DNA from: a virus
Reading direction: 5' to 3' (one strand)
Virus record (IMG/VR): IMGVR_UViG_3300007735_000794
Location: 1-64,000 of that record
Length of the DNA: 64,000 bases
Shown here: in pieces, positions 22,396 through 45,160 of the stretch
Position numbering within the stretch: position 1 is the stretch's first letter
How the letters are laid out: each line of letters starts with the position of its first letter
Made by a program: the position numbers and the translations under genes
Notes under the pieces: generated by a model
What the model saw: the letters and a program-made list of their open reading frames with translations, nothing else
Told to the model about the DNA's origin: nothing
Databases searched by the model: none

Positions 22396-22476
22396 ATGTT
22401 GATATCAAACACAAACCTTAGAAGATTGATTGCTGAATCGATAGAAAGCGGCATATTAATGATAACAACTTGTTGA
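22396..22476 (+). pseudogene. leader-only remnant of the LRxLIxE family (26 aa)
   Basis: MLISNTNLRRLIAES then early stop; upstream sequence duplicates that of 23062. Confidence 0.6.
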
Positions 22477-22531
22477 AAAAAATTCGAAGTTATATCAGCA
22501 AGCGCAGATAGATCGAATGCAATAAAGTGAA

Positions 22532-22939
22532 TTAGTCTTCTTCGTCATCAAACAAATCATCGAAGTCATCGTCATCATCACCCCATTCTTCATCACGCAT
22601 GGCAGCAGCAAAATCACCATGCGCTGGGTCACCGCCCGCAGACAATAAGATCATGTCAGCAAGCTCAACGAATTGATCTTCGGTCAGCACTTCATCAAAG
22701 CCAAATCCGCTGAGATTTGCATGAAGATCATACGTGGGCATTTTTGAATCTGCATCAAAAAGAAATGTAAGGCGATCTGCGATTTTGCACATAAGTGGCG
22801 CGCGGCTTTCTTGCGGCATTGAATCGATGTTTGTGCATAGATCTAATGCCCATTCAATTGTTTCTGCTTCATCATCTTGTGATTCGTCTTTTAACTCATC
22901 ATCAATCATTTCTATCAACATGCTTTTTGATAGTTTCAT
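22532..22939 (-). CDS. acidic protein with leader variant (putative virion internal protein)
   Basis: MKLSKSMLIEMIDDELKDES; Asp-rich tail. Confidence 0.75.
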   Translation of the reverse strand: MKLSKSMLIEMIDDELKDESQDDEAETIEWALDLCTNIDSMPQESRAPLMCKIADRLTFLFDADSKMPTYDLHANLSGFGFDEVLTEDQFVELADMILLSAGGDPAHGDFAAAMRDEEWGDDDDDFDDLFDDEED

Positions 22940-23061
22940 TTGTTGACTCTATAAAAGTATACATATCGATGAAGCAAAAATCTGCACCCGTAAACTTTTC
23001 GTAAAGTGAACAGTCACAACTTTTCTTCCCGGGAAAATTGCGCGAAATGATAATTAGCTTT

Positions 23062-23712
23062 ATGTTGATATCTGCGCGCAAATTAAAATCGATGATTGCT
23101 GAAGCAGCAAGCAATGATTTGCTTGATGATGATCTTGTTCTTTTAATTGAAGAGTTTGCTAATCTTTCTAAAGACTGCGCAACGTTTGACGATATTAGCG
23201 AAGAAGGCATGTTGATACTGAAAATGATTCGTAAACTTGCAAGAAGTGGTGATGATGATCGCTATTTTAGTTGGATTCTGCGTCAAGATCTCACGCGGAA
23301 AATTTCAATAAATGATATCGCACAATTTTCTGTTGGTGCTATGTTTCTTGATGAACGCTGTGGTGTAAGCGACAAAGACAAAATGAAATTTGAGCAAATT
23401 GACAAGTTGATATCAAAGCTATCTGTCCAGTTCGCTTTTCGAAAAGATGAATTGGAAATTGAAAAACTCTCTGAGGCGATTATTGCGCTGCTCCGCGAAA
23501 TTTATGGAATTAGCAGCTTAAACGGTTCTCCTTTCACTTACGCATCACTTGCATTCCGTTGCAAAAGCCTGCGTTGTTACAATCCTTACAACACACACGC
23601 AGCAATTCCAGTGTTTGTTCAAAGAACTCTGCTCTATTCATTAACTGGATACGTATTTGACTTGCAAAAATCAATTCATAATTTTTTGCGCTTCCACGAA
23701 GATCGCACTTAA
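23062..23712 (+). CDS. leader-family protein (putative virion internal protein), close paralog of 24996
   Basis: MLISARKLKSMIAEA; EEGMLILKMIRKLA. Confidence 0.8.
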   Translation: MLISARKLKSMIAEAASNDLLDDDLVLLIEEFANLSKDCATFDDISEEGMLILKMIRKLARSGDDDRYFSWILRQDLTRKISINDIAQFSVGAMFLDERCGVSDKDKMKFEQIDKLISKLSVQFAFRKDELEIEKLSEAIIALLREIYGISSLNGSPFTYASLAFRCKSLRCYNPYNTHAAIPVFVQRTLLYSLTGYVFDLQKSIHNFLRFHEDRT

Positions 23713-24357
23713 ATGATTATTTCTAGCACAAAATTGCGACGTCTGATTTATGAAGCAATTGATGATTTTGGCGAAGATCGTGAAGTAATTCAATCATTGT
23801 TTGATGAAGCTGTTTCTCGTTTTTTTGAATGCGGAGTATCGTTTTCTCGAGCAAATGTTGATGAAGAGTTTATTGTTGCGTCAAAACAATTAATCACACT
23901 TTTGGGATGGGACAGTGAAATGATTCGCGACATGATCGCAGATCATGAAAGTCTTGATCCTTACATGCAAGATTCTTTCTTTAGCGTTATGAAGTGGGTT
24001 TGCTTCAAATCTTTAAATAATATTGATGACGCTGCCGACCCAAATTTTTTGCAATTGAAAGAAGCAATTATTGAGCTTAAAAAAGCAATTGACAAAGAAG
24101 ACGAAGACAATGAAGATTTTGCTCCAGGCGATGCTGAACAAGATGATAATTTGTATGTCATAGAATTGCAGAAGATTTTGAGCTTATATCAACGCAATGA
24201 GAAGGTGAAAACATTATTGAACGCTCGAATACACGGCGTTGCTGATGGGTTTGTTGCGACGTTTATTAATCCTGGTTACAATGAATTTATTATTCCAAGC
24301 ATTGTAGACATAATTAAAAAGTTTGTTAGACGCAGTGTTAAGAGAACAATGATATGA
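23713..24357 (+). CDS. leader-family protein
   Basis: MIISSTKLRRLIYEA; EEFIVASKQL. Confidence 0.8.
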   Translation: MIISSTKLRRLIYEAIDDFGEDREVIQSLFDEAVSRFFECGVSFSRANVDEEFIVASKQLITLLGWDSEMIRDMIADHESLDPYMQDSFFSVMKWVCFKSLNNIDDAADPNFLQLKEAIIELKKAIDKEDEDNEDFAPGDAEQDDNLYVIELQKILSLYQRNEKVKTLLNARIHGVADGFVATFINPGYNEFIIPSIVDIIKKFVRRSVKRTMI

Positions 24358-24977
24358 TTATTTCTAGCACAAAATTGCGACGCTTGCTTAAGGAATCAAT
24401 GGACGCTAGCGTCCATGAAATCATTGAACAAATGTGTGAAATTTTTAAGCAAAACAATGCTAGAATGGATAAAACGCTAGCTGACCCTGATTTTATCTTT
24501 TTAGAAAATGCACTTTATGCAAGTTATGATGCTATTGCAGAATTCGATAGACGTATTGATGTGAAAAGTGTCATTGAAGATGCGATTGCTGGAAGCAACA
24601 TATCTTCGTATTCTGCTATTTGCTTGAGTCAAGCAATAGAATCAATTATTAGCGACAAATGCAGACACATAAATATCAATGACGCAAGAATAAAAGAAAT
24701 AGAGCAACTGCTCGAAGTAATATACGAATTTTACAAAACACAAGACTTTGAATACATCAAAAAAAATGAAAGTGAAATCATAAGTGTTGTAAAAAAGATA
24801 CATGAACTCGCCGCGGGTGTTTATAATGTCGATGAAGACTTTCGTGACTGCATGGGTAGAATGAGCGTGTCTTATTCAAGCGACATATTTATACATTTTG
24901 TTAGAAGCGTAGTCTATAGAATGACATCACATGATGCTGCGCGAGATGTTCGTCATTTTAATCGCGTCATGATATAA
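24354..24977 (+). CDS. leader-family protein
   Basis: MIISSTKLRRLLKES (leader DNA nearly identical to 23713). Confidence 0.8.
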   Translation: MIISSTKLRRLLKESMDASVHEIIEQMCEIFKQNNARMDKTLADPDFIFLENALYASYDAIAEFDRRIDVKSVIEDAIAGSNISSYSAICLSQAIESIISDKCRHININDARIKEIEQLLEVIYEFYKTQDFEYIKKNESEIISVVKKIHELAAGVYNVDEDFRDCMGRMSVSYSSDIFIHFVRSVVYRMTSHDAARDVRHFNRVMI

Positions 24978-24995
24978 GAGAACAACATAATAAAC

Positions 24996-25655
24996 ATGAA
25001 CATCACTTCACAACAACTTCGGCAAATGATTCGTGAAGCAGTCACGCACGACGATAACAATGAAATGCTCGATGATGATATTGCAGAATTGATTTATCAA
25101 TTTGAAGATGAAACGAAAGAATGTGTACGGTTTAGTGACATAAATGAATCTGGAATGCTTGCATTAAAGATGATAAGAAAACTCGCAAATGTGGGTGACT
25201 ATATAAAATTTATTGAATGGAATAACAAAAGATGGTCTTTTGACAAACCGTTTAATGACGTCTCACATAATTCATTGCTTGCTGCATTTTTTGAAGCGAA
25301 TGAACATATCACAGATAATGATAATCAAATGTTTGAAAAACTAAATAAATTGTTTGGCGAGCTAAAGTCACAGTTTGAAACTCACAAACAAGCAAAAAAG
25401 ATTTGCAACATTTCTATGAAAATTATTGATATTATACACCAGCGCTTTGGAAACATATATCATACAGACTTGCTAAATGCTTCATTTGCATATCATTGCA
25501 GCAATATGCGTCATTTTTCGCCATCTAATGCTGAGATTGTGCCTCTTTTTGTCAAAACAGTAATTCTTTATAGCACAAATGAAAATCATGCAGAGTTATT
25601 ATATCGTGTTCGAAGATTTATCGATGACATTAATTTAGACGCAGACGAAGATTAA
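24996..25655 (+). CDS. leader-family protein
   Basis: MNITSQQLRQMIREA; ESGMLALKMIRKLA. Confidence 0.8.
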   Translation: MNITSQQLRQMIREAVTHDDNNEMLDDDIAELIYQFEDETKECVRFSDINESGMLALKMIRKLANVGDYIKFIEWNNKRWSFDKPFNDVSHNSLLAAFFEANEHITDNDNQMFEKLNKLFGELKSQFETHKQAKKICNISMKIIDIIHQRFGNIYHTDLLNASFAYHCSNMRHFSPSNAEIVPLFVKTVILYSTNENHAELLYRVRRFIDDINLDADED

Positions 25656-26041
25656 CTCTTGTCGTTATATTTGTAGTCTAAATAAAATAGAGTACTTTTT
25701 GGCATAGACATCGGTTGAACTTTTACAATATCATGAATAAATAATGCTGAGTTTGCTCTTTGTATTTTTGGAAATACGAATTTTTGTGGCCTCGTTGATT
25801 TCCCACGCGTAAAGATTTGTGTTTCGTATATCGTGTGTATGCGTTCATCAATAAACACTTCCCAGTTTGGGAAGTTATTACTTGTCGCAATTTTAATGAT
25901 GGGCATGCATAGTTTTGGTGCTTCCCATTCGTGTTCAAGCCACACCTCATAAATTTCGCCCGCGACTATTTGTCGTTCTTCGTCTTTCAAAACTTTAACT
26001 GCGCTCTTAATCATTTTCATTTTTCTCTTTGCGAGAAACAT
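25652..26041 (-). CDS. hypothetical protein (IVAGEIYEV, KOW-like)
   Basis: Fills gap antisense; no leader. Confidence 0.6.
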   Translation of the reverse strand: MFLAKRKMKMIKSAVKVLKDEERQIVAGEIYEVWLEHEWEAPKLCMPIIKIATSNNFPNWEVFIDERIHTIYETQIFTRGKSTRPQKFVFPKIQRANSALFIHDIVKVQPMSMPKSTLFYLDYKYNDKS

Positions 26042-26204
26042 TTAATGAATGAATTTCACGAATGATTTCGTCACGATTGTTTTTGTTAAAGTCTAACAAT
26101 TCTTGTATCTTTCTTAATAAGTTTTCGTCAAGATCAGAATTGTCAAGTTCTTTGACAACATCGTCAGCCATTTCTTTGAATTTCGAAATCAAACTTTTTT
26201 CCAT
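26007..26204 (-). CDS. small helical protein
   Basis: GAGG SD; TGTAAA-N16-TATGAT upstream. Confidence 0.65.
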   Translation of the reverse strand: MEKSLISKFKEMADDVVKELDNSDLDENLLRKIQELLDFNKNNRDEIIREIHSLNVSRKEKNEND

Positions 26205-26294
26205 TTTTAACCTCGTATTTATCATACTGCTTCTTGCTAAAATTTACACTTTCTTTTCTCAAGCATATTTAATTGTATAAAGAGCACATGTTCT

Positions 26295-26933
26295 ATGAAA
26301 ATTACAAAATCAGAATTGCATCGTCTTATACGTGAAGAATTTGTTCGCCTTCGCGAAGGCAGTGATACAATTGGTAAACCACTGTTTAGTTTAGCAGGTC
26401 TTATGGGTCAAGACTATATGGGTGCACCAATCGCAAGATTAAAGCCCACAGATTTTGATGATTGGCGATCAAAATTGCCAGCAGAATTCAAAATGCCTTG
26501 CATCACAAAGCAGGGTGTTGCTGCCGTGCCCGTTTCAAAACAGATTTATATGCCTTTCTTAGAAGCATTCTATAAATTTATTGGGATGGGTGACGTAGAA
26601 GAAGGAGTAAACAAAGTATCTGGAATGTCAATCGACGAATTTCATAGCAAAATGGGATTATTCAAATCAATTGAAAAAGGCGCGGGCGCAGGCCAAGTTG
26701 CTGGCGCTTTAAGAATTCAAAAAAATATTTTACTAAACGATCTCATTGCGCAGCATGATGAATTTTCAAGATACCTTATATTTAAAATGACAAGATTCGG
26801 TGTTCCACAACCGTGGGTTTGGCCACTTGTTTCTGAACTAACATTTGAAGAGGTCACAGAAGAAATGATTACACCTGCAATGGCAGATCTTGACAAAGCT
26901 ATTATGTTTAGTCAATATGCGGCACAAAAGTAA
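26295..26933 (+). CDS. leader-bearing protein with unrelated body
   Basis: MKITKSELHRLIREEFVRLREG; ATATTTA upstream. Confidence 0.8.
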   Translation: MKITKSELHRLIREEFVRLREGSDTIGKPLFSLAGLMGQDYMGAPIARLKPTDFDDWRSKLPAEFKMPCITKQGVAAVPVSKQIYMPFLEAFYKFIGMGDVEEGVNKVSGMSIDEFHSKMGLFKSIEKGAGAGQVAGALRIQKNILLNDLIAQHDEFSRYLIFKMTRFGVPQPWVWPLVSELTFEEVTEEMITPAMADLDKAIMFSQYAAQK

Positions 26934-26938
26934 TTTGA

Positions 26939-27667
26939 ATGCTAATCACTTCTAGAAAACTTCGCAATCTTATCAAAGAAGCAATTAGTGATACAAATGA
27001 ATTACGTCAAGAAATTAGTGAAGACATTGAACAGATTCTTGTTTCTACTACAGGCAGAACAAACACATATGAAGACATAGCAACAAACAATGACTTGAAA
27101 CATTTGTTAAATGTGCTTTATGCAGATGCAAATGAAAATGACTACGAAGAATTTATGTGTGCATGGCGCGCATATACAACAGGATACAGCGCAGTGGATT
27201 CTGTGTTGCATAACGTTGAACAATATATAGAAAATTCTATCGACGTTATTGATGTTATCGCAGCAATTTTATTTAACAAACAACACAATGTCAGTTTACA
27301 CAGTCAGCATTTTGCGAACATTTCTTCAATGTTATATTTGTTGCATGATGCATGGGACGAGTTTAGCCACAGCAATACATCAGGTGAAAGAGCAAGAAGC
27401 TTGGCAAAAATAATTTATGAATTAAATGAAAAAATCGGCAGAGAATTTAGCAGCATGTATGGAAATATAAGCGCATTTGATGTAAATTTAAAGAAGCATT
27501 CGATTGTGTTTGAAGCGAAGAACAATATTTATTCATCACTTTGTCTATTTACAGACATTGTAAAAATGGGAAAAGCATTTGATAATTTTGTCTATCACTA
27601 CATTATCACGTCATTTTTAAAAAGTCACACTATTGAATTAGATCGATATATAAATCAGTTCAAATAA
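26939..27667 (+). CDS. leader-family protein
   Basis: MLITSRKLRNLIKEA. Confidence 0.8.
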   Translation: MLITSRKLRNLIKEAISDTNELRQEISEDIEQILVSTTGRTNTYEDIATNNDLKHLLNVLYADANENDYEEFMCAWRAYTTGYSAVDSVLHNVEQYIENSIDVIDVIAAILFNKQHNVSLHSQHFANISSMLYLLHDAWDEFSHSNTSGERARSLAKIIYELNEKIGREFSSMYGNISAFDVNLKKHSIVFEAKNNIYSSLCLFTDIVKMGKAFDNFVYHYIITSFLKSHTIELDRYINQFK

Positions 27668-27703
27668 AGAAACGGAATAATTAGCAGCATAAGATTGTGA
27701 TTA

Positions 27704-28384
27704 ATGTCTGATCGTGTGATTAAAGTATTCATTCGTCAATCGCTAAATGAAACTCGTGATCTTAATCTTGATGTTGATGAAGATATCAATATGCTTGTTA
27801 ATGAGATTATTGATTTAAAAATTCGTACTCCTGAGGATATTGATACAAATAATTTTGTTGTTACGACTATTATGAAAATGATTGCTGGATTTTTGACGCA
27901 AGGTGATTATGATGTAATAAGCGCTCGTGACTTGTTGTATGTTCCGCTTGTAAACAACACAAACTGTTTACCTAGCTTTGCTATGAAAATAGGAAGAATG
28001 TTATCATTTTATTTTGTCTTAAAAATTTGCAACATTAACAATGAAAAAATTAATATTCTTCGACAAAAAATTTTGTTGTGCAATGATTTGATAGACAAAT
28101 ATATTAGCGAAAATGATGATGAACAAACAATGAATAAGATTATTCATAATTTGAAATTTTTGCATGCATTTGTAAAAGAAATAACAGGCAACAATAGACA
28201 TTATATTACTTTGATTCTTGATCGAAATCATACAATTGGAAAATCATGCGAAGAGAATGTATTTCGATTTTCAAAATATCATTGCATTGCTTACGCGATA
28301 GACGTATTCAGAGAGTTAAAGGATAGTGAAATTCGCAGCATCGTTAAAGATGAAAAAGTGTATTCAACTATTAGGACTAACTAG
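27704..28384 (+). CDS. leader-family protein
   Basis: VIKVFIRQSLNET; TTIMKMIAGFL. Confidence 0.8.
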   Translation: MSDRVIKVFIRQSLNETRDLNLDVDEDINMLVNEIIDLKIRTPEDIDTNNFVVTTIMKMIAGFLTQGDYDVISARDLLYVPLVNNTNCLPSFAMKIGRMLSFYFVLKICNINNEKINILRQKILLCNDLIDKYISENDDEQTMNKIIHNLKFLHAFVKEITGNNRHYITLILDRNHTIGKSCEENVFRFSKYHCIAYAIDVFRELKDSEIRSIVKDEKVYSTIRTN

Positions 28385-28386
28385 CA

Positions 28387-29064
28387 ATGTTTAAAATGAA
28401 TTTACAAAATACAATTCGTTATTTTTTGCTTGAAGTAACAGAAGAAGAGAAGCTTGCAAAGCGCACAGACGAAGAAGACTTGTTGTTTTATGGTAAAGAA
28501 CTTTTACAATTTTTGTATGAGCACAAAATAAAAAACGATTGGTCGTATAAATCTTTCAAACATGAAATTAGTGATGAACTTGAGTTTATGATAAAAACAT
28601 ATGCAACATTAGCAGCAATGACATGTGATTCTATAAAATCAGTTGAAATGTTTAATAAACATGCAGGCTTTAGATCGTGGCCTTATCTCAGCCAAGATGT
28701 CATTTTTCAATTTATTTTTACAAAATTAGACTTGAAGATTGATGATCCACGTTTCAAAGAAATCATTTATCTTGGAAAAACAATCAGCGAAATGATAAAT
28801 GATTATGAATATATGTGCGCACGAAATGCTTCAAATGAAACATCGCTTCAACTCATTATTGTTAATCTAAAGAAACTGCGCGCATTGTGCAAAGATGTGT
28901 TCAAAGGAAATGATGAGTATGCGCGATGGATCGTATACGAGTGTAAAACAGACAAGTTCGATTTAACAGTGTATGTCGATAGAATTATGATTATGCACTG
29001 TATGATAACAGACTTTTCAGACATAAAACTAAAACGTGAATTGGAGAAAAGCTGTGGAATATAA
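28387..29064 (+). CDS. leader-family protein
   Basis: LQNTIRYFLLEV; ELEFMIKTYA. Confidence 0.8.
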   Translation: MFKMNLQNTIRYFLLEVTEEEKLAKRTDEEDLLFYGKELLQFLYEHKIKNDWSYKSFKHEISDELEFMIKTYATLAAMTCDSIKSVEMFNKHAGFRSWPYLSQDVIFQFIFTKLDLKIDDPRFKEIIYLGKTISEMINDYEYMCARNASNETSLQLIIVNLKKLRALCKDVFKGNDEYARWIVYECKTDKFDLTVYVDRIMIMHCMITDFSDIKLKRELEKSCGI

Positions 29065-29740
29065 TTTAAGGCATCTCCGTGAATTAATTCGTGAAGGTTT
29101 GCGTGCGCAAGAACGCGAACAAAAAATTGAAGAAAACAAAGAAGATATCACACATTTGCTAGATGAAATATGTCTGTTATGTAGGGGCGCAGAACACAGA
29201 CAAGACGTAGGTGAGAACGAAGAAGAACTAGTAATTGTGATTAAAATGACAGGTATATTGCTTTCAAAGATTTTTGATACTCCTGATCAAGTGTCTCATT
29301 TTCTTTTTGTTTCTAATATGCGCGTTAAAATGGGAAGAAATTTATTGTCTGTAATAATCACCGAGATTTGTACAATATTTTCATTAGAAAAGCTCAATAT
29401 AAAAGAAAATGATTCAATATTCGAAATGTCAGATGAATTAGTCAAAGAGTTAAATGAACTACTTCATCAATACTGTTTTGAGTATATTGAATGTATGCAA
29501 GAGATACTAGTTGCAGCACACAAATTAAATGATATGTTTGTTTTGTTTTGGAAAAATTCAAACGATCGTAAAAATGCGCAAGATTGTATATATTTTCTTA
29601 CATACACGTCACCGAGAAAAACAAGGCTGCTTAAAGACACACATTACCCAGGAATTAGACAATTTGCAGTAACACATAAGCTTGATGATGAAGACATAAC
29701 AGATATCGTGTTTAATGAACAGATCACTTCGAAAAGATAA
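29054..29740 (+). CDS. leader-family protein
   Basis: GTG start after GGAG; LRHLRELIREG; ELVIVIKMTG. Confidence 0.75.
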   Translation: MEYNLRHLRELIREGLRAQEREQKIEENKEDITHLLDEICLLCRGAEHRQDVGENEEELVIVIKMTGILLSKIFDTPDQVSHFLFVSNMRVKMGRNLLSVIITEICTIFSLEKLNIKENDSIFEMSDELVKELNELLHQYCFEYIECMQEILVAAHKLNDMFVLFWKNSNDRKNAQDCIYFLTYTSPRKTRLLKDTHYPGIRQFAVTHKLDDEDITDIVFNEQITSKR

Positions 29741-29748
29741 TTATCAGT

Positions 29749-30357
29749 ATGATTCGTCAAATAATTAGAGAAGTACTTCGCAATGAAGAGGTTGATGACA
29801 TTGTCACGTTGATCTGGAATTTGCGTGATAGATTCGAAGAGCAGGGAAATGATTTTAGAAATGTTGAAGTAGATGAAGAATTTCAACTATCAGTAAAAAT
29901 GTTATCTTCATTAATACGAAATAACAAAGAAAAGCTTTTAAACGCATGGCGCACAATTGATGACATTAATCTAGATGCATTTTCAAATGAAGACAATGCA
30001 TTCATTGATTTCTTGTTTTGGCAAAATTACAAAATTCTTAACAAAATAGACTTAAGTAATGAAAATTTTATGAAGTTAATATCACAAATTGAATTATTAT
30101 CAAAATACATAGACGGTCAAGGCCCAAAACATAACAAAATAATGTACATGAATATGATTGCAGAGAATGCATTAAAAATGTTTGAAAATTGTGAATTCGA
30201 CTATACGCATGAAGATACTTTTGGACGATATGAGCATGACGGTTTTATAATATCAATTTTTAATGGAAAATCAAGTCAAGCTGAGGACGTTATCGATGTA
30301 TTAGATCGTGAATATACACACCTTTTAAGGGCGCGAGGCGAAAAAGATTACTCATGA
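29749..30357 (+). CDS. leader-family protein
   Basis: MIRQIIREV; EEFQLSVKMLSSLI. Confidence 0.8.
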   Translation: MIRQIIREVLRNEEVDDIVTLIWNLRDRFEEQGNDFRNVEVDEEFQLSVKMLSSLIRNNKEKLLNAWRTIDDINLDAFSNEDNAFIDFLFWQNYKILNKIDLSNENFMKLISQIELLSKYIDGQGPKHNKIMYMNMIAENALKMFENCEFDYTHEDTFGRYEHDGFIISIFNGKSSQAEDVIDVLDREYTHLLRARGEKDYS

Positions 30358-30965
30358 CATCGACACAAACATTGCGCAGCATGATACGTGAAGCATTGCT
30401 TCAAGACGTCGGTTATGAAGAAGAGTTTATTGCTGATGCACAAGTTGTGCTTTCAGAAATGGTAAAGATCTTAATTGATAACAATTCTCATATATTTGAT
30501 GCAGTTAAAAATGAAGAATTTCGATTATCAGCAAGAATGCTTGCGAATATGATTTGTGGCGAATTTCAAAGTTATCCACTTGCACGAAAGCTAATTTCTA
30601 GTGTTATATGTCATGATGAGTCAGTCATACATGGAAGTACTATTTTAATAATGATCGAAGATTATATTTGTTGGTTAGTTTATGCAAAAATAAACAATAT
30701 TGATACAGAACACGTTGATTGCAGTGAAGCAATCAAGCGCATTAAGCAGCTTGACATACTTAACTCGCAAGGCTATGAAATTTATGAACAAATAGACTGC
30801 TGTAAAAAGATCATTGCAGCATTCAAAAAATCAAATTTGAATTTTATTCGAGCAGATGATGCATTGCGTGGTTTAATACGCATATCATTGAGCGAAGATG
30901 ATATTCATGTTGATTATAACGTATTAAGCATGATAATCATCGATTCATATTATGCAATTTCATAA
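30354..30965 (+). CDS. leader-family protein
   Basis: MTSTQTLRSMIREA; EEFRLSARMLA. Confidence 0.8.
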   Translation: MTSTQTLRSMIREALLQDVGYEEEFIADAQVVLSEMVKILIDNNSHIFDAVKNEEFRLSARMLANMICGEFQSYPLARKLISSVICHDESVIHGSTILIMIEDYICWLVYAKINNIDTEHVDCSEAIKRIKQLDILNSQGYEIYEQIDCCKKIIAAFKKSNLNFIRADDALRGLIRISLSEDDIHVDYNVLSMIIIDSYYAIS

Positions 30966-31572
30966 CTTTTTAATAAAGCAACTTATTCGCGAAGGTTTCT
31001 TTTCAGATCAAGAAGCAGAAGCAGAGCTACGTAGTGGAATAAGAGAAATATTGGTGTATATTTCTGATATGTTTAAAATACAAGATACAACATGCATTCA
31101 TGAGTTAGTTGGTAACAATGAATTCAATACAAGCGTCAAAATGATTGTTGGGCTGTTGTTGCAAGAATTCAAAGCAAGATCATCAGCGCAGTATTTTTTG
31201 GGAGAAATATTTCACGAAACATTCAGCATAGATAGAGCACGAGCAATCGAAGAAAAGCTTGTTTTAGAGCTACAACAATATATTACTTGGAAAATATGTG
31301 AGATTCAAATGAATGTTCAAATAAACGATCATCACATACAGACTGCAATAGAGCTTATAAAGAAAATCTCAGATATGCACAAAGCATCAATGTTTTTTTC
31401 GGCGCGTGAAAAATTTATTGAGCGTCAAATGTTTAAGCGTATTCGTGAAGAATTGCTTGCTGGTAAAATAGACATAAATGCGATTGGTCGAGTTGCGTAT
31501 TATGGATTTCTAATCTCACAATTTAATAGCTGGGATATTGATTATCAATATATTGACAATGACTTGTATTAA
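30952..31572 (+). CDS. leader-family protein
   Basis: LIKQLIREG; NEFNTSVKMIVGLL. Confidence 0.8.
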   Translation: MQFHNFLIKQLIREGFFSDQEAEAELRSGIREILVYISDMFKIQDTTCIHELVGNNEFNTSVKMIVGLLLQEFKARSSAQYFLGEIFHETFSIDRARAIEEKLVLELQQYITWKICEIQMNVQINDHHIQTAIELIKKISDMHKASMFFSAREKFIERQMFKRIREELLAGKIDINAIGRVAYYGFLISQFNSWDIDYQYIDNDLY

Positions 31573-31936
31573 GTTTTTCTCGTATAAATTCATCATTCAG
31601 ATGTTTTAACATCGCAATCACACTGTCATTAAGTTTATTATTTGCTGCATTATCACCCGCATATACGTCATTTTGCCTGTCGCGGATAAATGATGACATT
31701 AAGCCGTCATCGTGTATCTCTATTTCACAATAGAATTTTTTATTGCTCCACGATAGAACAATTGTCTTTGTATCATTAGTGTCTTCACCAAACGCAACTT
31801 GCGGCAAGTCAAGTGTATTGCAAAAATCATTTTGAAGTTGTCGCCAAGATTTGACAACATGCGCAGCATGAGATTTTGAAATAACGCTTTCTAAGTTATT
31901 TATACAATTTTCAAATTCAAGTTCATTTTTTTCCAT
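31523..31936 (-). CDS. hypothetical protein
   Basis: Antisense insert; ATG 31936 overlaps upstream gene end. Confidence 0.65.
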   Translation of the reverse strand: MEKNELEFENCINNLESVISKSHAAHVVKSWRQLQNDFCNTLDLPQVAFGEDTNDTKTIVLSWSNKKFYCEIEIHDDGLMSSFIRDRQNDVYAGDNAANNKLNDSVIAMLKHLNDEFIREKLNTSHCQYIDNQYPSY

Positions 31937-36677: not shown

Positions 36678-38208
36678 ATATATCGAAAGCGCATCTGAAC
36701 GATATTTCGATCCAATTTTTGAAGAGCTCACAGAATTCGTTGAAGAGCTTGATTTAAAATCATTTGATAATGCGACTAAAATTACACGAAAGCAAGCAGA
36801 AGAGCTTGATTTTGCAATCAAAGTGATTGCAAAATTGACTCGTGAATTTTGGGAACATACTGTGGATAAAACTCCTGATTTATTTCCACCAATCGAGAGT
36901 TACTATTGGGCTTCTAAAACATCGTCTTATTATGCAAATTTGAGAATATTTTTTAGATTTTGCGGAATTGCAAATTCATCAGTTTTTGCTGGTTTAGTGT
37001 CATATTATCAAATGGGATATGACCACGACATCATTAAACATACTTGGAAGATCAAGGACGATACGAATCTTAATGAATCTCATGATAAAAATTTATTAGA
37101 ACAACAATATAATGATCTTGTAGATGAGCTTGTAACATACATAAGCTATTCATCTTTGGCAGAAATTATTCCATATGAAAATTTGCAACAAAATAAAATT
37201 ACACATGAACAAGCAAATGAAATATTTTATGTTTGCAAAGTAATTGCATATTACATGAATAAGATTTCTAGCGCTTTAAAAGATAGAAATCATTTAGAAA
37301 AAGTTGAAGTAGCTTCGCGCATAAGGAACATTTTACGTCAATGCGGGATAACAGATTTGCGACTCTTGACAATTTTTTCACGTGTTGTCGTAGCTGTCAT
37401 GAATAATCAAGATGCAGATTTAAAAACTGCATTTAATAACAATATTACACAAATCATTAATGAAGCTATACAGAAAAATAGCGGAGAATGCTGCCCAATA
37501 TGTGGTGCAGAAGAAAATGTGTCGTGTGAACATTATCCAACAACGAATGAGCAAGATGAGATTTTAAGCGCTGCATTTTATGCTTATCTAGAAGACGAAA
37601 CATCGACTGCTTGGGCAATAAAAATCGCAGCGTCTGTTGTTGATTTAAATTTGTATAGGCGCTATATAGATGAGCTATTCAAAGGTTACACAGAAATGAC
37701 GCCAGAAAAGCGAATGCTTCATTTTGTCGCAGGTGTAATTCGTGATGCAGTTGAATTTCATGATGAAAATGCATCATTTGCATATTCAACTTACATTAAG
37801 TTTGCAGATCGCATTATTGATTATTTGCAAAACAAAGGCACATTACATGAATTCATTTCTGAAGCGTTAATGATTGATGACATTGGTCAACATTCTGAAT
37901 TTATGTTGGCACAGCGTGCATTCATAAATGAAATCAAAGAAGTCATTGAGCAACTTGATCCATTTATATTTGCAAATGCACGTCATACTTCAAGAATCGA
38001 ATTAAGAAATGATTTTGATTTTGCGTTAAAACTTATCAATGCGATGTTTATAAAATTTTGTCAAGAAACATCAACAAAGTATGACTACAGTTTAATCTAT
38101 CGTGTTATAAGTTCGACGCAACTTTATTCTAGTAATTATGATGTGATAGAAGTAGCAGACAATATAGACGAAACGCGTCGCGGCACATTTAAATGGAATA
38201 ATACATAA
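36670..38208 (+). CDS. family four-domain polyprotein
   Basis: Cores DFAIKVI, FYVCKVI, AWAIKIA, DFALKLI; linkers LNES, INEA, ISEA. Confidence 0.85.
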   Translation: MSKYIESASERYFDPIFEELTEFVEELDLKSFDNATKITRKQAEELDFAIKVIAKLTREFWEHTVDKTPDLFPPIESYYWASKTSSYYANLRIFFRFCGIANSSVFAGLVSYYQMGYDHDIIKHTWKIKDDTNLNESHDKNLLEQQYNDLVDELVTYISYSSLAEIIPYENLQQNKITHEQANEIFYVCKVIAYYMNKISSALKDRNHLEKVEVASRIRNILRQCGITDLRLLTIFSRVVVAVMNNQDADLKTAFNNNITQIINEAIQKNSGECCPICGAEENVSCEHYPTTNEQDEILSAAFYAYLEDETSTAWAIKIAASVVDLNLYRRYIDELFKGYTEMTPEKRMLHFVAGVIRDAVEFHDENASFAYSTYIKFADRIIDYLQNKGTLHEFISEALMIDDIGQHSEFMLAQRAFINEIKEVIEQLDPFIFANARHTSRIELRNDFDFALKLINAMFIKFCQETSTKYDYSLIYRVISSTQLYSSNYDVIEVADNIDETRRGTFKWNNT

Positions 38209-38231: not shown

Positions 38232-39182
38232 TTAACGTCTCATACCTAATTTAGCAGGTCCGCCCAAGAATTGGCCAAATGCTTGATCTTCTACATCGCG
38301 CGTTTCGCTGAGTGCATCGAAGAATCCTTGTTCGAAAACTTCGCGACTTTGTGACGTATTTTCAATTTCCATAAGTAAAGTAACAAGATTTTCGGAATTT
38401 CTTGCAGCTTCTTTTAAAACTGCGTCGTAATACTTAGAAAGCACATCGCGAATTCTTTCTGCCATTGGCGCATTTTCTTGTTGCGCTTGCGCATAATTTA
38501 CTTGTGGCGTTAATCCAAGCAAATTTGCAAACCAGCCGTCCTCAGTTGCTCTAATCATATTAAGCGCAATTTGAAAATTGCTTATGAATGCTCGAGGATC
38601 GCTCTTCATAAGTCTACCAAGCTCTGCCCATACAAGCGGCAAAATTCTCATTCCAACACTCATTGCAGGAGCAACAAACTCTTCCATCAAAACTTTTGAA
38701 ACAGCTATTTTGACTTGTATTCTGTTCTTTTTTCCTGCAAGATCACGAACAGGGAAGTATTTTTGTTTTGTTTCTGGCGGCGGGTCTATTCCTGGCTCAT
38801 CTTCTGGAGCATTGCCCACAACACCCTTGTGTTTTTGTTTCGTTCGATTTGCAAGCGCATCATCGAACGCTTGATCAAAATCAAAATCATCATCTACGTC
38901 AGAGCTGTCTAATGCATTTAATATACTCTCGGGAGTTGCACCCTTAAATTGATCAAGTGTAACACCTCCCCGGGCTACCGGAGGAAGATTTACATTTTTT
39001 TGTCTTGTGCCAAGGTCGCCACCTTTTGGAAGCACTTCAACTTCTCCGCCGCCAGCGGGAGCATTAAGCAAATCTTCAAGTTCTTGCTCTTCTTTTGATA
39101 AAACTTTTGTTTTAAGCGGAGGATTATCAAAAGCTTCTTTTATAACTGCACGTATTGTTTTTCTTAGATTTCTAATTGACAT
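38232..39182 (-). CDS. leader-bearing hypothetical protein
   Basis: MSIRNLRKTIRAVIKEA. Confidence 0.8.
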   Translation of the reverse strand: MSIRNLRKTIRAVIKEAFDNPPLKTKVLSKEEQELEDLLNAPAGGGEVEVLPKGGDLGTRQKNVNLPPVARGGVTLDQFKGATPESILNALDSSDVDDDFDFDQAFDDALANRTKQKHKGVVGNAPEDEPGIDPPPETKQKYFPVRDLAGKKNRIQVKIAVSKVLMEEFVAPAMSVGMRILPLVWAELGRLMKSDPRAFISNFQIALNMIRATEDGWFANLLGLTPQVNYAQAQQENAPMAERIRDVLSKYYDAVLKEAARNSENLVTLLMEIENTSQSREVFEQGFFDALSETRDVEDQAFGQFLGGPAKLGMRR

Positions 39183-39189: not shown

Positions 39190-39924
39190 TTAGCCTCTTA
39201 AGCGTGTATAGTCTACGCTATGTCTAGAATATTGGTTCCAAATATCGTTATCAAATTCATGACGACCGCGATCGTCGCCTGCAGCGCCCAGACGTTCTGC
39301 TTCGTAATGAATAAATGAGAACCACCAACCAAATTGTTTCATGATTGTATCAAATAAGACAGTATGCGCAAAGTCAAATTTTGATTCGTCAGTTATTCGA
39401 CAGACGACATCTGTCGAATTAAAGAGCTTTTCTAATAGTGACTCATCATCGTCTTCTATAATTTCATCACCAATTTCATTATAAAATGTAAATGGACATT
39501 TTGAAATATCATATTGAAATCCTGCTACAAGTTCAGTTGTAATAATCTCGAATGCATGCACGATCATTTTCACTAATTCTTTAGTGAGCGCCTTGCCAAG
39601 TTTTTTTGTTACGTCATCAGTACTTTCTGCATTTTTTAAGAATTCATTAGAAAGCTCTTTTGCAAATGAAATAATTATGCTTTTGATACTTGCGTCTGAT
39701 TTTAATGTCTCATTTGATATTCCAAAGCTTTTTGCTAGTTGCATGTATTTTGTAGTTAGACCTGACGCATATTTTTCTGCAATGTCATAAAATACTTCGC
39801 TTTTTGCAATTGTTGTTATGCTATTGAGAAAATTTGTAATTTCTTCATCTGACACGTCGTCGATGCCTTCGAGCATGAGGTGTCTGCGTATGAGCGATCT
39901 AAGAATTGTGTTTTTTATTTCCAT
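39190..39924 (-). CDS. leader-bearing acidic helical protein, paralog of 41947
   Basis: IKNTILRSLIRRHLMLEGIDD; TLK...IK pattern shared. Confidence 0.8.
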   Translation of the reverse strand: MEIKNTILRSLIRRHLMLEGIDDVSDEEITNFLNSITTIAKSEVFYDIAEKYASGLTTKYMQLAKSFGISNETLKSDASIKSIIISFAKELSNEFLKNAESTDDVTKKLGKALTKELVKMIVHAFEIITTELVAGFQYDISKCPFTFYNEIGDEIIEDDDESLLEKLFNSTDVVCRITDESKFDFAHTVLFDTIMKQFGWWFSFIHYEAERLGAAGDDRGRHEFDNDIWNQYSRHSVDYTRLRG

Positions 39925-39928: not shown

Positions 39929-41863
39929 TTAACCGATGATTTTTTGCCATGATTTAAGTAATTTGTTTTCTTTAAACAAATCGTTTAAATCATTATCAAT
40001 TTCTTGATCATTTGCACTTTGAACATTATCATTTAGCCCTAATATGCGTTTAGACTCGTCAGGAACAATACCGAGGAATTTGTTAACAGTGATTGCGTGT
40101 GTTAGCATTTGTCTAATTTTGCTATTTTTTGCAGATATGCCTATCGCGTCCATAAAAAGTTTAATTTTATATGGGAGTGTTCCGTAATTAAATATCAATT
40201 CTAGCATATGAGGTAACTTTTTATTTTCTGGCGCTTTGTCTGGATTTATGATATACAAGTTCGCAATCTTAAGCGAAACGTCGCGAGGCCATGATTTAAC
40301 AAATGCAGGATTGCTCAATGCTGCTTGGAATGATTCATTTGTTAAAACAAAATCCCAAAAGTTTCCGTTAAGTCCTGTTCCCATCGCGCTTGTGAATGAT
40401 TTTGAACACATGTCAAGCACGATTTCAACGGGTGTATTTGGGTTTGTAGAAATATTTTTTGCGAGCGATTGATAGTTTTTTTCTTTTGCATACTCATATG
40501 CAGCTTTAATTTCTTCAACATTGTCAGAAATTGACATATCGTATGCTTTTTGAACTTTTGCGTATGGACTTCCTAAGCTTATCATTAATGATTTTGTTTC
40601 TTCATCTTGATTATCTACTAATTTATTCCACGAAGATAACATCTTAAATATTGCATCTCCCGATGCTTTAACATTTTGAAAAAGTAAAAACACATTTTTT
40701 GCATTTTCTGGCCAGATTTTTATATCTGAGTTATCATTGAATATCGCAGCAAGCGTATAATCATTCAACTCTTCTTTGTCTGCATTAATTTTGATAAGTT
40801 CATTCAATACATTTGAATCTTGATTTGTAACTTGATAAGTGAGACGAGAAAGCGTCATAAATTTAGCAATGAATGCAGCACATTCTCTAGAGAATTTTAC
40901 ATTTGCAGATGTTGCATCTTTATAAATTCGAATAGCTTCCTCAGTTCTTTGCTGAGCGCTGAGTGTGACAAGCATTTCTTTCATTGCACCGAGATTATTT
41001 GCAGCCTTGATAGCATAATCTGCGGCGGGCGCAACGCCACCAATCGATTCAACTTTTTCGAAGATAATCTTCATAATCTCAGAATAATATTGACCCAAGA
41101 CGCGTTTGTGGTCTTCAGCTGTCATTCCTTTATTGTCTCTGTCAATCGTTGTTCCGCCATTACGTCCATCTATAAGCTTGCCGTCTTTAAAACCAATTGA
41201 CATATAATCAAATTTTCCGGCGGGGTCTGGATAAGGACGCGCGCCATCTTTGATAATATAGATTAATAGCTTGTCACCAGAGTTGTATGTGTAGAAAAGA
41301 TTTGATTGAGATGTATAGTTTGTACACCACGTTGTGTTAGGTGCCATTGTTATCGGATCATAGCCTGCAATTTCCATACTGTCTGCCATGTTGTGAGGCA
41401 GCCAAATGTTCCAAGGACCGACTTTTCCTATCAATTCTTTTGGGCCACCCTGCGAACCTGTCAGTGCAAGCCTTTGTTTTTTCTTTGATGCCAACGCCAT
41501 GATTGTAGTCATTTCATCGACTGTCATCTTTTGAAAATCTGCAGGATTATCCCACGATTTTTCTTTATTGAGCCCAGCATAGTATGCTGCGATATCTGTC
41601 TTAAACTGTTCGTTTGTTGCCCATTTTTGGCTAAGACCTGATGCTAATCCTTTGTATGATTTAACAATTCCAATGCAGTCCTCAATTGGATGAGTTTCTT
41701 TGATTGATTTTTCTTTTCCAAATCTCTTAATCAACCAAGAAATGCAAGGCGGATCAAGTTGCATAATCTGTGGCGCTTGAGCGCTGTATTTATCTGCCAG
41801 CTCTTTTTGGTCATCTTTAAATCCTTCAAGCAGCAATTCGGCAATAAATTGTTTTATATGCAT
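39929..41863 (-). CDS. large leader-bearing protein with WCT motif and LRV-like NPNTP repeat
   Basis: MHIKQFIAELLLEG; TTWCTN..NLFYTY; NPNTPVEI. Confidence 0.85.
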   Translation of the reverse strand: MHIKQFIAELLLEGFKDDQKELADKYSAQAPQIMQLDPPCISWLIKRFGKEKSIKETHPIEDCIGIVKSYKGLASGLSQKWATNEQFKTDIAAYYAGLNKEKSWDNPADFQKMTVDEMTTIMALASKKKQRLALTGSQGGPKELIGKVGPWNIWLPHNMADSMEIAGYDPITMAPNTTWCTNYTSQSNLFYTYNSGDKLLIYIIKDGARPYPDPAGKFDYMSIGFKDGKLIDGRNGGTTIDRDNKGMTAEDHKRVLGQYYSEIMKIIFEKVESIGGVAPAADYAIKAANNLGAMKEMLVTLSAQQRTEEAIRIYKDATSANVKFSRECAAFIAKFMTLSRLTYQVTNQDSNVLNELIKINADKEELNDYTLAAIFNDNSDIKIWPENAKNVFLLFQNVKASGDAIFKMLSSWNKLVDNQDEETKSLMISLGSPYAKVQKAYDMSISDNVEEIKAAYEYAKEKNYQSLAKNISTNPNTPVEIVLDMCSKSFTSAMGTGLNGNFWDFVLTNESFQAALSNPAFVKSWPRDVSLKIANLYIINPDKAPENKKLPHMLELIFNYGTLPYKIKLFMDAIGISAKNSKIRQMLTHAITVNKFLGIVPDESKRILGLNDNVQSANDQEIDNDLNDLFKENKLLKSWQKIIG

Positions 41864-41946: not shown

Positions 41947-42618
41947 CTATGCTATTTTTGCTTTAATGCTTGCACACTCTTTAAAATCAAAATTATAAAA
42001 CCAGCATGAGATCCTGTAGATCAACATCTCATACAGCGCTTTTTGATCATCATCAAGTGATATTATAGTTATGAGTTCGCCTCTCTCGCGAAGGTCAATA
42101 AGTTCTTCATAATCTGTAATTAGTTTTCCTGAGCCATCATGGACGAAGACGTCTTCGTCGTGCGTTTGATAAAGCGCTTCGAATGCGAATTCACTTGGTA
42201 GCTCACTAATGACGCCGACAAGCATCTTTACTATTTCGTAGACAAAGATTTTTACGATTTTTTCGTCATTAATAATTTCTGAGTATTCTTCGATGTCTGC
42301 CTCAGATTCTGCTAAGAGTTGCAGTATATTAAGATATAGATTATTTGCATTAAGAATTAACAGCTGCTTTATTTGATTATTCTGCTTCAGCGTAACACGA
42401 TTCATTCCGCTAGGTGAATGCGCCATTTCGTAGAGGACTTTTCCAATTTTGTTGTCTATTGCGCTCTTAACAAAATCTTCATCAAACTTATCAGCATGAT
42501 GAAGTTCTATGATTAGATCGACTAATTGAAGTGCTTTTTCTTTTTTATTGTCATCAAGCCCTTCTTCAATGATCCTTCGTTTAATTAGCGATCGAAGAAC
42601 AGAATTTTTAACAAACAT
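41947..42618 (-). CDS. leader-bearing acidic helical protein, paralog of 39190
   Basis: VKNSVLRSLIKRRIIEEGLDD. Confidence 0.8.
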   Translation of the reverse strand: MFVKNSVLRSLIKRRIIEEGLDDNKKEKALQLVDLIIELHHADKFDEDFVKSAIDNKIGKVLYEMAHSPSGMNRVTLKQNNQIKQLLILNANNLYLNILQLLAESEADIEEYSEIINDEKIVKIFVYEIVKMLVGVISELPSEFAFEALYQTHDEDVFVHDGSGKLITDYEELIDLRERGELITIISLDDDQKALYEMLIYRISCWFYNFDFKECASIKAKIA

Positions 42619-42655
42619 TAGTAACGCCACGAACAATTATTAAATATACAAACAG

Positions 42656-43165
42656 TTAGAAAAATGTTTGCCTATTTTGGGGTTCAACATAGTCAAGCTT
42701 CAAAAATTCAAATACGGCATAATCGTCATAAAAATCAGAAATACATTCTTTCTTATCGTTTAAAATTTGATTTTTTGTATAACAATATCCCATTTCGCTA
42801 CACATACTTGCAATAAAAATATTGAATCCAGCCGGACCTGTGTAATTCATTGTCATTATTCCAAAATTTTCTTTTGTTGCAATAAAAATATCAATTTGAA
42901 CATCATCAATTGAAACGTAGTATGCAATTTTCCCAACTTGTTTTTTCAATTGAACGTTATCAAACCATGATTTAAAATCATCAAGATTTTTTGGCACTAT
43001 AACAATATCAACATCACCGCATGTTTGTCTTTGTCTGCGATATGACCCACATATTTCTAATTTTTCACATTGAGCATGAAGTCCCAACACTTTTAATTCT
43101 TCAACAATTTTTTCAACTTCTTTTCTTGATATTCTTCTGCTCTCACCAAAGACTTTGCCGCTCAT
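42656..43165 (-). CDS. polX: minimal X-family DNA polymerase (palm + thumb only)
   Basis: GSYRR..CGDVDIV; QIDIF; YTG...FN; YVEPQNR. Confidence 0.85.
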   Translation of the reverse strand: MSGKVFGESRRISRKEVEKIVEELKVLGLHAQCEKLEICGSYRRQRQTCGDVDIVIVPKNLDDFKSWFDNVQLKKQVGKIAYYVSIDDVQIDIFIATKENFGIMTMNYTGPAGFNIFIASMCSEMGYCYTKNQILNDKKECISDFYDDYAVFEFLKLDYVEPQNRQTFF

Positions 43166-43226
43166 AAATCACACGTAATAAACAAAATATAATTCGTGTC
43201 ATGATATTTACACATATTTATAGAAT

Positions 43227-44030
43227 ATGACGAAAATATTGCAAGAATCAATACGATGTATACTGAATGAAACAGTAGGCTGGTCTGATAGCTTAGAATC
43301 AATCTCTTTGAGGTTAGAAGAATTGATTGGGAAAGAATTTTCAATGTTCAAGCATTTAGAAAAAATGGGCTGGAAATTGGGAAGATTTTTACCTGACACT
43401 ATACCACACGATTTTGTTTATTTGGGTAGTGGCATGTATCGTGTTGTGTTTGCACCCAAATCAGACAAAGATTTAGTTATCAAAATAGCAAAAACAGAAG
43501 ACGGTTGCGCTATGAATAGTGACGATGCTCTAGTTGGGAAAAATGGATATTGGGCGAAAGCGTTCCCGAAATGTTACAACGTTGCAGATGATTATAGATG
43601 GATTATTCAAGAGCGATGTGATGTTGCAAGAAATAGAAGTTCGCATGGCTATGCTGACCTTTCTAGTTACTTTGTAAATACATACTTTTATTATTTTTCA
43701 GATGACGATGAGTGGTCTGTGCTAATTTGTTCACTTGCTATCGGCGCTGGAATGTCATTTGATGAATTAAAGAAATCATGCAGAAATGCATATCTTACTG
43801 CTGCCAATGAAATAAATAATTCTTTCGAAGAAGACCCAGATGAAATCATTCAATCTATGAATGACGAACTTATGAATACATCTGCAACATATAAATTGTG
43901 GTGTGGCGCGATCAAGCGATTTGGAATTGCACCAGACGATTTATATTCAAACAATCTTGGATTTTCTAGAGAAGACTGCAGACCTGTTATTATTGATTCA
44001 AGCTTTATAAATACATTAGAGAGAACATAA
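43227..44030 (+). CDS. atypical protein-kinase-like protein with family leader
   Basis: LGSGMYRVVF, VIKIA, DDLYSNNLG, VIIDS; leader ILQESIRCILNET. Confidence 0.75.
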   Translation: MTKILQESIRCILNETVGWSDSLESISLRLEELIGKEFSMFKHLEKMGWKLGRFLPDTIPHDFVYLGSGMYRVVFAPKSDKDLVIKIAKTEDGCAMNSDDALVGKNGYWAKAFPKCYNVADDYRWIIQERCDVARNRSSHGYADLSSYFVNTYFYYFSDDDEWSVLICSLAIGAGMSFDELKKSCRNAYLTAANEINNSFEEDPDEIIQSMNDELMNTSATYKLWCGAIKRFGIAPDDLYSNNLGFSREDCRPVIIDSSFINTLERT

Positions 44031-44031
44031 A

Positions 44032-44754
44032 ATGAACGAACAATTCAAAAAGTTGCTAAGAGAATTCATAAATGAAACTGTTATAAGACGTCGCGGCGGT
44101 GAAGAAGTAAAAATAGCATCTTCTGCCGATAGGATTTCTTCGTTTTCTGGCGCTACGCGCGGCAATATTACATCGATTGGCGACATAAAAATATCACCAA
44201 AAGAAGCAAAAAACTTGTCGTTAGAAATGAATTCGCCATTTATGCAAGGGCCCGCATTTCATGCAATTTACAATGGAGGTGTGGGAGAAGAAAATAAATT
44301 TGTAAAGATAAAATCAAAAGAGCAAAAGCGTGCATCTATTTGGGGTGAAGATGACAATGAAGAGAACGTTAAAAAAGTTCCAACTCTTGCGAATTATAGA
44401 ATCGGCGAAAAGGGCTCATATGTTTATATTCCTGAGCTTTTTTTGATGGTGCATAATCCTGCTACAGTTGATCGTGCATTTGGCGTCGGTTTTGTTAAAA
44501 ATATAGAAAATTTCCCAACATCAACACCGGGCTATGATGCACCGCTTGCTCAAATAGAATTTGCTGACGATCAAAAGCCACCAGGTCATATGAATACACA
44601 AAACATGGTTGGTTTAGCATTCGTATGTAAGTTATCAGAAGCAGATGCGCTTGTTAAAGCAGAACAATTTTCAACGATTAAGAAACGAACACTTTCAAAG
44701 GGCGCGTCAGTCAAAGATCCAATAGTTGCAGCTCAAGAAGAAGATGATGACTAA
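44032..44754 (+). CDS. leader-bearing hypothetical protein
   Basis: FKKLLREFINET. Confidence 0.8.
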   Translation: MNEQFKKLLREFINETVIRRRGGEEVKIASSADRISSFSGATRGNITSIGDIKISPKEAKNLSLEMNSPFMQGPAFHAIYNGGVGEENKFVKIKSKEQKRASIWGEDDNEENVKKVPTLANYRIGEKGSYVYIPELFLMVHNPATVDRAFGVGFVKNIENFPTSTPGYDAPLAQIEFADDQKPPGHMNTQNMVGLAFVCKLSEADALVKAEQFSTIKKRTLSKGASVKDPIVAAQEEDDD

Positions 44755-45160
44755 ATCATGTGAAACAGTTATAAGAGCATTAATACGTGAATTTAATTCG
44801 CCGGTGGGTGATTCTGTTCTTGAAATGATGTCAGATGTCGAGGGTGTTGTCGAAGGAATTAGCAAATTATCAGACGAGCTAATTGAAATAGAACCGCAGG
44901 TAGGAATTCAATTGAAAACATTTGCAAAGAGTTTAAAATCTTCACCAAAAAAAGGGCCCAAAGAAGTCGCAATTCAAATGCAAAAAATTTTAACATTTCT
45001 AGAAGATGAATTGCATGATGAAACGCTTGGTCTTCAAATGAGAATTGCGACATTGCTTCGAAGCTCGTTACCAATGACTGGAATATTTCAATCGCCACAA
45101 GCAGGTTTAAATCCCGCATATGATCCCACAAAAGGCAGCATGTTTAACAAAGCGGGATAA
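44744..45160 (+). CDS. leader-bearing hypothetical protein
   Basis: VIRALIREF. Confidence 0.7.
   Translation: MMTKSCETVIRALIREFNSPVGDSVLEMMSDVEGVVEGISKLSDELIEIEPQVGIQLKTFAKSLKSSPKKGPKEVAIQMQKILTFLEDELHDETLGLQMRIATLLRSSLPMTGIFQSPQAGLNPAYDPTKGSMFNKAG

Follow-up and report, generated by a model that had tools for sequence, protein, structure and literature searches.

A shared N-terminal leader on a 23-kb gene array of an uncultured phage: a candidate prohead-targeting propeptide

Why should some two dozen phage genes, several of them with unrelated products, begin with the same short peptide? The question is raised by an array at 22,396-45,160 of a 64,000-nucleotide stretch of viral DNA (hereafter the window), which is the first 64 kb of one 98,068-bp IMG/VR virus record (IMGVR_UViG_3300007735_000794). 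An earlier note, made from the letters alone, had reported about 24 genes on both strands of this array that share a leader ending in (I/L)-x-E. The list of open reading frames (ORFs) and an N-terminal alignment bear this out: among the 31 ORFs on both strands at 22.4-45.2 kb, 19 have a strong leader and 6 a weak one, and the consensus, M-x-(I/L)-x4-L-(R/K)-x-(L/M/I)-I-x-E, spans 14 residues. We consider it probable, at roughly two chances in three, that the leader is a propeptide that targets proteins to the prohead core in the manner of T4's capsid targeting sequence, and that the array encodes proteins that are processed and located inside the head.

The leader is concentrated both in the array and at the N-termini of its proteins. 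A strict regular expression applied to the first 25 residues matched 17 of the 31 genes at 22.4-45.2 kb, none of the 49 upstream genes, which make up an early-looking left arm, and 2 of the 49 downstream genes (Fisher p = 5e-11 for enrichment in the array). The leader is also missing from polX and from five antisense ORFs within the array, as had been claimed. Two further bearers lie beyond the window (contig 80585-80851, + strand, and 95648-95911, - strand). Across the 98-kb contig (29,768 residues), a leader hidden Markov model (HMM) gave 19 N-terminal and no internal matches at 6 bits or more; the model was trained on these same leaders, and only its internal zero is independent. With a looser regular expression, matches were 22 times denser at N-termini than in protein interiors.

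In 15 proteins, 13 from the array and 2 from beyond the window, the leader keeps one fixed register with its last position at residue 14. This count takes in the gene listed from GTG 29036 on the assumption that it starts at GTG 29054, which is its most likely start; the leader is then MEYNLRHLRELIRE, and its residue 14 is Glu. Position 12 is I or L in all 15, and residue 14 is Glu in 12, Arg in 2 (both from a paralogous pair designated F2) and Asp in one (the weak variant of the gene at 22532), so the (I/L)-x-E ending stands for most of these leaders. In the two Arg14 leaders, a second L/I-x-E-G follows five or six residues further on. The conserved Leu8, Arg9 and Leu11 are each encoded by four to six different codons, and the mean nucleotide identity of the leaders is 51%. 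Because the conserved residues use so many synonymous codons, selection acts on the peptide rather than on a DNA or mRNA element.

Are the proteins behind the leaders related to each other? To find out, we removed the leader and searched the remaining bodies against one another with phmmer and iterated HMMs; genes are named here by their first coordinate. Ten proteins of 200-240 amino acids (aa), joined weakly by the product of 29054 to make 11, form a family, F1a, whose members are 14-24% identical and in which the leader is the sole well-conserved stretch. A modular family, F1b, comprises five proteins (32309, 32980, 33724 and those of 698 and 512 aa) with modules of ~130 aa, and 39190 and 41947 form the F2 pair. 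No relative was detected for 22532, 26295, 38232, 39929, 43227, 44032 or 44744, or for the two bearers beyond the window. When F1a, F1b and the proteins without relatives were compared by hhalign, again with the leader trimmed, no relation was found (probability <1%). As the bodies are unrelated by this comparison, the leader sits on roughly ten independent sequence families. The description of these proteins as otherwise dissimilar therefore holds in part: about eight bearers, weak ones counted, have no detectable relation to any other, whereas the eleven F1a, five F1b and two F2 proteins each have kin within their own group.

In homologues from other phages the leader is kept while the bodies diverge, as seen for the 644-aa protein of 39929, for F1a and for the 316-aa protein of 38232, and this counts in favour of the prohead-targeting reading. 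The 644-aa protein has 36 metagenomic homologues, about 30 of which begin with M-x-I-x-R-x-Q-L-R-x-L-V-E-S-V-L-L-E-G or a close variant. Relatives of F1a amount to 16 matches among 1.84 billion representatives, and all five of the longer non-self ones carry the leader. The orthologue of the 316-aa protein in a related locus (L010) carries the leader and adjoins the polX orthologue, and two related fragments (G005 and G008) have only three to five leader genes each. Given this spread of homologues, the array seems to combine a conserved set of cargo genes on its right (38-43 kb) with a lineage-specific expansion in its F1 part (23-38 kb). A tblastn search of 50,697 phage records with the 644-aa protein gave no match, and a first IMG/VR scan with a single-protein query gave no result. 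Four homologues of the 644-aa protein (P0006, P0014, P0015 and P0020) have an extra leader-like helix at the extreme C-terminus (RLRQLIRR, RLRQVIKR or RLRQLIKE).

What, then, ties the leader to the phage head? The 98-kb fragment has no protease (Peptidase_S77), portal or capsid gene, and the link therefore rests on relatives. CheckV puts the completeness of the contig at 28%, which corresponds to a phage genome of ~350 kb, and the absence of Peptidase_S77 accordingly means little. A gp21-like protease, which the earlier note had named as a feature to look for, is missing from this fragment and present in all eight related records examined, and in each of the four larger records with an orthologue of the 644-aa protein, a Peptidase_S77 (gp21-type) match exceeded the Pfam cut-off. 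The baseplate wedge in four protease-bearing records is 48-49% identical to that of this phage, which is closer than in any cultured phage. In one record (G002), the protease (L026:9253-9861) shares 32% identity with T4 gp21, and the His and Ser of its catalytic site are aligned to H85 and S140 of the T4 enzyme, whose catalytic residues have been described (PMC12991175). The genes of this record run in the order TerL, portal, a 288-aa gene, the protease, a 171-aa leader gene and a 96-aa leader gene, after which come two 177-aa ORFs, a 466-aa scaffold-like protein and the major capsid protein. The 171-aa gene starts with MKMTRQDLKSIVKE-CLVE-ILSE-G, and its leader has Leu8, Lys9, Ile11, Val12 and Glu14 at the same positions as the leader of the window; the 96-aa gene starts with MATRLTPDTLRRLVLEE. 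Pfam and PHROGs gave no result for most of the cargo in G002.

An IMG/VR scan with the protease gave 197 matches, of which 80 loci (66-100% identity) were kept, 61 of them distinct. The motif is present on the first gene downstream of the protease in 48 of the 61 and on the second in 44, so that the same motif on scaffold propeptides, another feature that had been suggested as a check, was found in relatives. Altogether, 100 of the 130 distinct protease-adjacent proteins have the motif, compared with 6 of 403 other ORFs, and Glu is most often residue 14. These counts were made with a regular expression of measured background because relatives obtain low scores from the narrow leader HMM (19 of 158 reached at least 4 bits, versus 0 of 401 others). 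In the cultured Microcystis phage Mel-JY01, a displaced version, IVQE-VVRE-VIAE, occurs on the gene after the protease, and no strong leader was found near the protease of XacN1, a more distant phage. Right after the leader-like post-protease gene, the head module of Mel-JY01 also contains a gene for ribosomal protein S21 (L155 6184-6411), which links the group to published bS21 phages (PMC9723584).

In T4, a capsid targeting sequence of 10-20 residues loads core and internal proteins and is removed by gp21 (PMC5694885, PMC3012670), which cleaves after the Glu in I/L-x-E (PMC12991175). As a T4 control, gp22 begins with MLKEQLIAE-A and gp24 with MAKINELLRE-S. By analogy, the leader described here would take the attached protein into the core of the assembling prohead and would be cleaved away behind the Glu of (I/L)-x-E, and the mature proteins would stay in the head with the DNA; we infer this targeting, cleavage and retention, as well as ejection, from sequence comparison. 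Two multi-module proteins of F1b would also be cut between modules at the same motif. In the 698-aa protein, [LIVM]-x-E-[SA] occurs after residues 21, 159, 299, 426, 555 and 689 and delimits five like modules, and in the 512-aa protein it occurs after residues 136, 265 and 398. The nine joint-motif sites seen in the two proteins, versus 2.9 expected, fit cutting into module-sized products. In every test run, comparison with relatives and with T4 supported the head-loading and protease-site sense of the portable tag that the earlier note had proposed. Directly observed are the motif itself, its restriction to N-termini, its occurrence in several unrelated families, a protease encoded by relatives and the same motif on the genes next to that protease.

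Several observations weigh against a prohead-core propeptide. Both F2 leaders have Arg where Glu14 is expected, and the mature parts of the proteins do not avoid [LI]-x-E-[ASG] (9 seen versus 11.3 expected). The C-terminal leader-like helix in the four 644-aa homologues is not explained by a purely N-terminal propeptide and suggests that the helix is a binding element able to work at either end of a protein. The cargo is nearly all acidic, with isoelectric points of 4.4-5.6, whereas IPII and IPIII of T4 are basic. The compared protease loci are kin, and their p-values therefore overstate independence, and the fragment itself, as noted above, is without the head genes.

If the array proteins are indeed carried in the head, what would they do there? 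That most of them are injected effectors is a tentative proposal, to which we give somewhat less than even odds, and an anti-defence or host-takeover role is a guess. One cargo protein alone, the kinase-like product of 43227, gives an enzyme lead, and a weak one: it matches phrog_4301 (2.5e-9) and, weakly, a kinase PHROG, and an Atlas lead places the T7-kinase family in 17% of the members of one cluster, while a word-based search found no homologue of this protein. Pfam and PHROG gave no match for most of the cargo and none to internal proteins or Alt, and sequence searches of the PDB were empty. The predicted structure of the F1a protein at 24996-25655 is an all-alpha, compact domain (predicted local distance difference test, pLDDT, 87; predicted template modelling score, pTM, 0.79), and its leader is modelled as a separate helix of lower confidence (residues 5-17) connected to the domain by a linker; Foldseek found nothing similar in the PDB or BFVD. 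In the 644-aa protein, a conserved alpha/beta N-domain, in which Trp, Cys and His residues are invariant, is combined with an ARM/HEAT-like tail, and a Foldseek search with the model of this protein returned only ARM/HEAT-like repeats, with E above 1e-3.

About half of the array consists of two paralogue families of acidic helical proteins, and these families, F1a and F1b, could equally be structural contents of the head. The leader would then still load the prohead, and F1a and F1b would be an expanded core, a scaffold or an inner body rather than effectors, and would be degraded, expelled or engaged in organising the DNA of the ~350-kb genome. This alternative, which we regard as unlikely and yet take seriously, agrees with the strongest homology of the leader, which is to genes in core and scaffold positions, with the F1 proteins being acidic, helical and free of any enzyme signature or structural match, with polyproteins that have repeated cut motifs like T4 gp22, and with the paralogous inner-head proteins known in giant phages (PMC5694885). 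On the other hand, F1a is a compact globular bundle modelled with confidence, unlike the low-complexity proteins next to the protease, its single-domain members have no excess of internal cut sites, and its near restriction to one lineage together with its low internal identity is better fitted by an arms race. An extended version of the propeptide reading, possible and at present doubtful, is scaffold mimicry at scale, in which the leader, a transferable copy of residues 1-14 of a head-core protein, would be attached to new genes, modules would be strung together with the protease motif as their joint, more than 30 distinct modules would be delivered with the DNA and the fast-evolving F1a would serve as injected counter-defence.

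The leader could instead be a shared helix with no tie to the capsid, directed at some different partner or destination (a modifying enzyme, for example, or a chaperonin, a membrane or an oligomerisation surface). The C-terminal position of the helix in the four 644-aa homologues and a small HExxH protein that adjoins the array would suit such a role, but the motif clusters on the pair of genes after the head protease and ends in the preferred site of that protease, which makes this explanation highly improbable. The leader as a tag for a radical S-adenosylmethionine (radical-SAM) enzyme was considered and rejected, as a radical-SAM gene was not found in the contig or in three of the four relatives. 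That the leader is a remnant of one ancestral gene or a start-codon DNA or mRNA element without a targeting role has a negligible chance. In its favour, about half of the bearers are paralogous and the leader is the best-kept part of F1a; against it, the leader-trimmed F1a, F1b and relative-less proteins show no detectable relation, the 644-aa, 316-aa and kinase-like proteins differ greatly in size and body, and the conserved residues vary in codon at low nucleotide identity, as described above.

The array begins on the - strand with a very acidic 135-aa protein (22532..22939; net charge -33) that has the weak leader variant MKLSKSMLIEMIDDE and a poly-Asp/Glu tail. On the + strand follow four F1a paralogues (23062..25655, with genes at 23062-23712, 23713-24357, 24354-24977 and 24996-25655), whose 14-residue leaders end in I/L-x-E, and then, on the - strand, two antisense ORFs without a leader (25652..26225). 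The 129-aa product of one of these (25652-26041, -) ends in 42 residues that match the capsid proteins of relatives at 47% over 36 aa and, at 26.5 bits (cut-off 24.4), the beginning of Gp23 in Pfam, which is the major capsid protein of T4; this ORF may be a detached N-terminal fragment of a capsid protein. A 212-aa leader protein without a detected relative in the array (MKITKSELHRLIRE; 26295..26933, +) precedes seven F1a paralogues that start at 26939, 27704, 28387, 29054 (GTG), 29749, 30354 and 30952 (26939..31572, +); the leaders of 27704 and 28387 are weak, and that of 29749 has 8 residues.

Two more antisense ORFs without a leader (31523..32237, -) separate these genes from F1b, which begins with a 131-aa leader protein followed by an A9 tract and a -1 frame ORF that reaches 33471 (32309..33471, +). 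At 32692-32980, the -1 frame is open past the stop of the 131-aa gene and the A9 tract, has no start codon and encodes family-like sequence with V-N-E-A at the junction; a frameshift, slippage or an error in sequencing the homopolymer could account for this. The next protein, of 286 aa and two modules (33724..34584, +), has a second leader core, LRHIRE-S, at residues 165-171 in addition to its N-terminal leader, and the 698-aa protein of five modules and the 512-aa protein of four, with the joint motif given above, occupy 34581..38208 (+).

The following genes are on the - strand: the 316-aa leader protein (38232..39182), an F2 paralogue with the leader LRSLIRR and then LMLEG (39190..39924), the 644-aa protein with the short leader IAELLLEG (39929..41863), the other F2 paralogue with LRSLIKR and then IIEEG (41947..42618) and a minimal Pol beta/PolX-like protein without a leader (42656..43165), which is kept inside the cluster in a relative too. 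Three mutually unrelated leader proteins, of 267 aa (kinase-like, with a weak leader), 240 aa and 138 aa, complete the array on the + strand (43227..45160). The T4 late-promoter word TATAAATA has 13 copies on the whole contig. Those at 41889, 43215 and 44006 lie 19-50 nucleotides upstream of the 644-aa gene, polX and the 240-aa gene, the only three array genes with the word upstream, and none was found upstream of the structural genes of the contig.

To which lineage does this DNA belong? Past the window, the contig carries large structural genes together with one for a baseplate wedge of the T4 gp6 type. The closest cultured relatives of the wedge, Flavobacterium phage immuto and Microcystis phage Mel-JY01, are each ~30% identical, as is that of a 484-kb uncultured phage. 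Related records encode a gp23-type capsid protein, a gp20-type portal and TerL; together with the wedge, these place the phage on a deep branch of the T4 superfamily, and we take it to be an uncultured far-T4 jumbo phage. No obvious Shine-Dalgarno sequence was seen at start codons. Bacteroidetes have been proposed as hosts of related freshwater huge phages (PMC9723584), and the missing Shine-Dalgarno sequence would fit such a host, which we offer as a lead only.

The regions that flank the array differ in composition and content. The first 22 kb have a guanine-cytosine (GC) content of ~43%; a short island at 20-22 kb reaches 60%, and the value elsewhere is 33%. The island (window 20000-22000) holds a 191-aa ORF (20686-21261, -) with an acidic tail rich in Pro, Glu, Val and Ala, and neither Pfam nor Rfam gave a match to it; Rfam had no match anywhere in the window. 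The left arm (window 1-20000) contains many small ORFs of 60-90 aa with like starts, for example M-x-x-G-D-L-V. Similar runs of small ORFs occur in related contigs (loci L008, L017 and L018), and the differing GC content of the left arm therefore does not reflect an assembly chimera. The HExxH-motif protein mentioned above, of 127 aa (45420-45803, -), directly adjoins the array and matches DUF6782, a putative metallopeptidase family, weakly (E = 0.0016). Further right (window 48760-63998), a PIN-PhoH fusion (1e-53) is followed by a series of genes for glycosyltransferases and methyltransferases and one that is asparagine-synthase-like.

The principle of a shared head-loading leader is already known from T4, and in the literature we found no description of such a leader array for this clade. 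If the leader works as proposed, it would be a label, readable from sequence, for the proteins that virions deliver in a clade of large T4-like phages that is abundant and uncultured, and metagenomes alone would suffice to list injected proteins, which are difficult to detect. A nearly lineage-specific, fast-diverging family would be marked as a counter-defence candidate, and a second, different tag would become available for packaging foreign proteins into capsids. The internal-protein model of T4, with its three to about ten genes in T-even phages, would be extended to arrays of ~25 genes and to multi-module proteins. On the more doubtful premise of scaffold mimicry, this would be the largest such cargo set described.

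Among known systems, two were compared with the array. With phiKZ (gp175) and SPN3US (gp245), it shares the setting of a jumbo phage with many paralogous proteins inside the head (here putatively), which in those phages are trimmed after Glu by a gp21-related protease. However, the propeptides there are mostly >100 residues long with the motif A/S/G-x-E (PMC5694885, PMC10052503), whereas the leader here is short, at 14 residues, and ends in I/L-x-E with I or L two places before the predicted cut, and the clade is T4-like rather than phiKZ-like. The resemblance to IPI-III and Alt of T4 goes further. In both cases a short N-terminal peptide is the sole common part of unrelated, clustered, non-core genes, the leader ends in (I/L)-x-E, the gp21 cut site, and it resembles the N-termini of the head core and vertex proteins gp22 and gp24. 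The two phages also belong to the same superfamily, with a gp6-type baseplate here and gp23, gp20 and gp21 homologues in relatives. In T-even phages, according to one account (PMC12373910; Repoila 1994 as cited there), the internal proteins have the leader alone in common, lie in variable hotspots and number at least ten. The differences are that the putative cargo described here is acidic and has no homologue of IPI-III, that the leader has 14 residues and its own consensus (L8, R9, L11, I12, E14) in place of the 10 residues of T4, that ~25 genes in 23 kb stand against 3 in T4 and ~10 across T-even phages, and that two multi-module proteins carry the motif at their joints.

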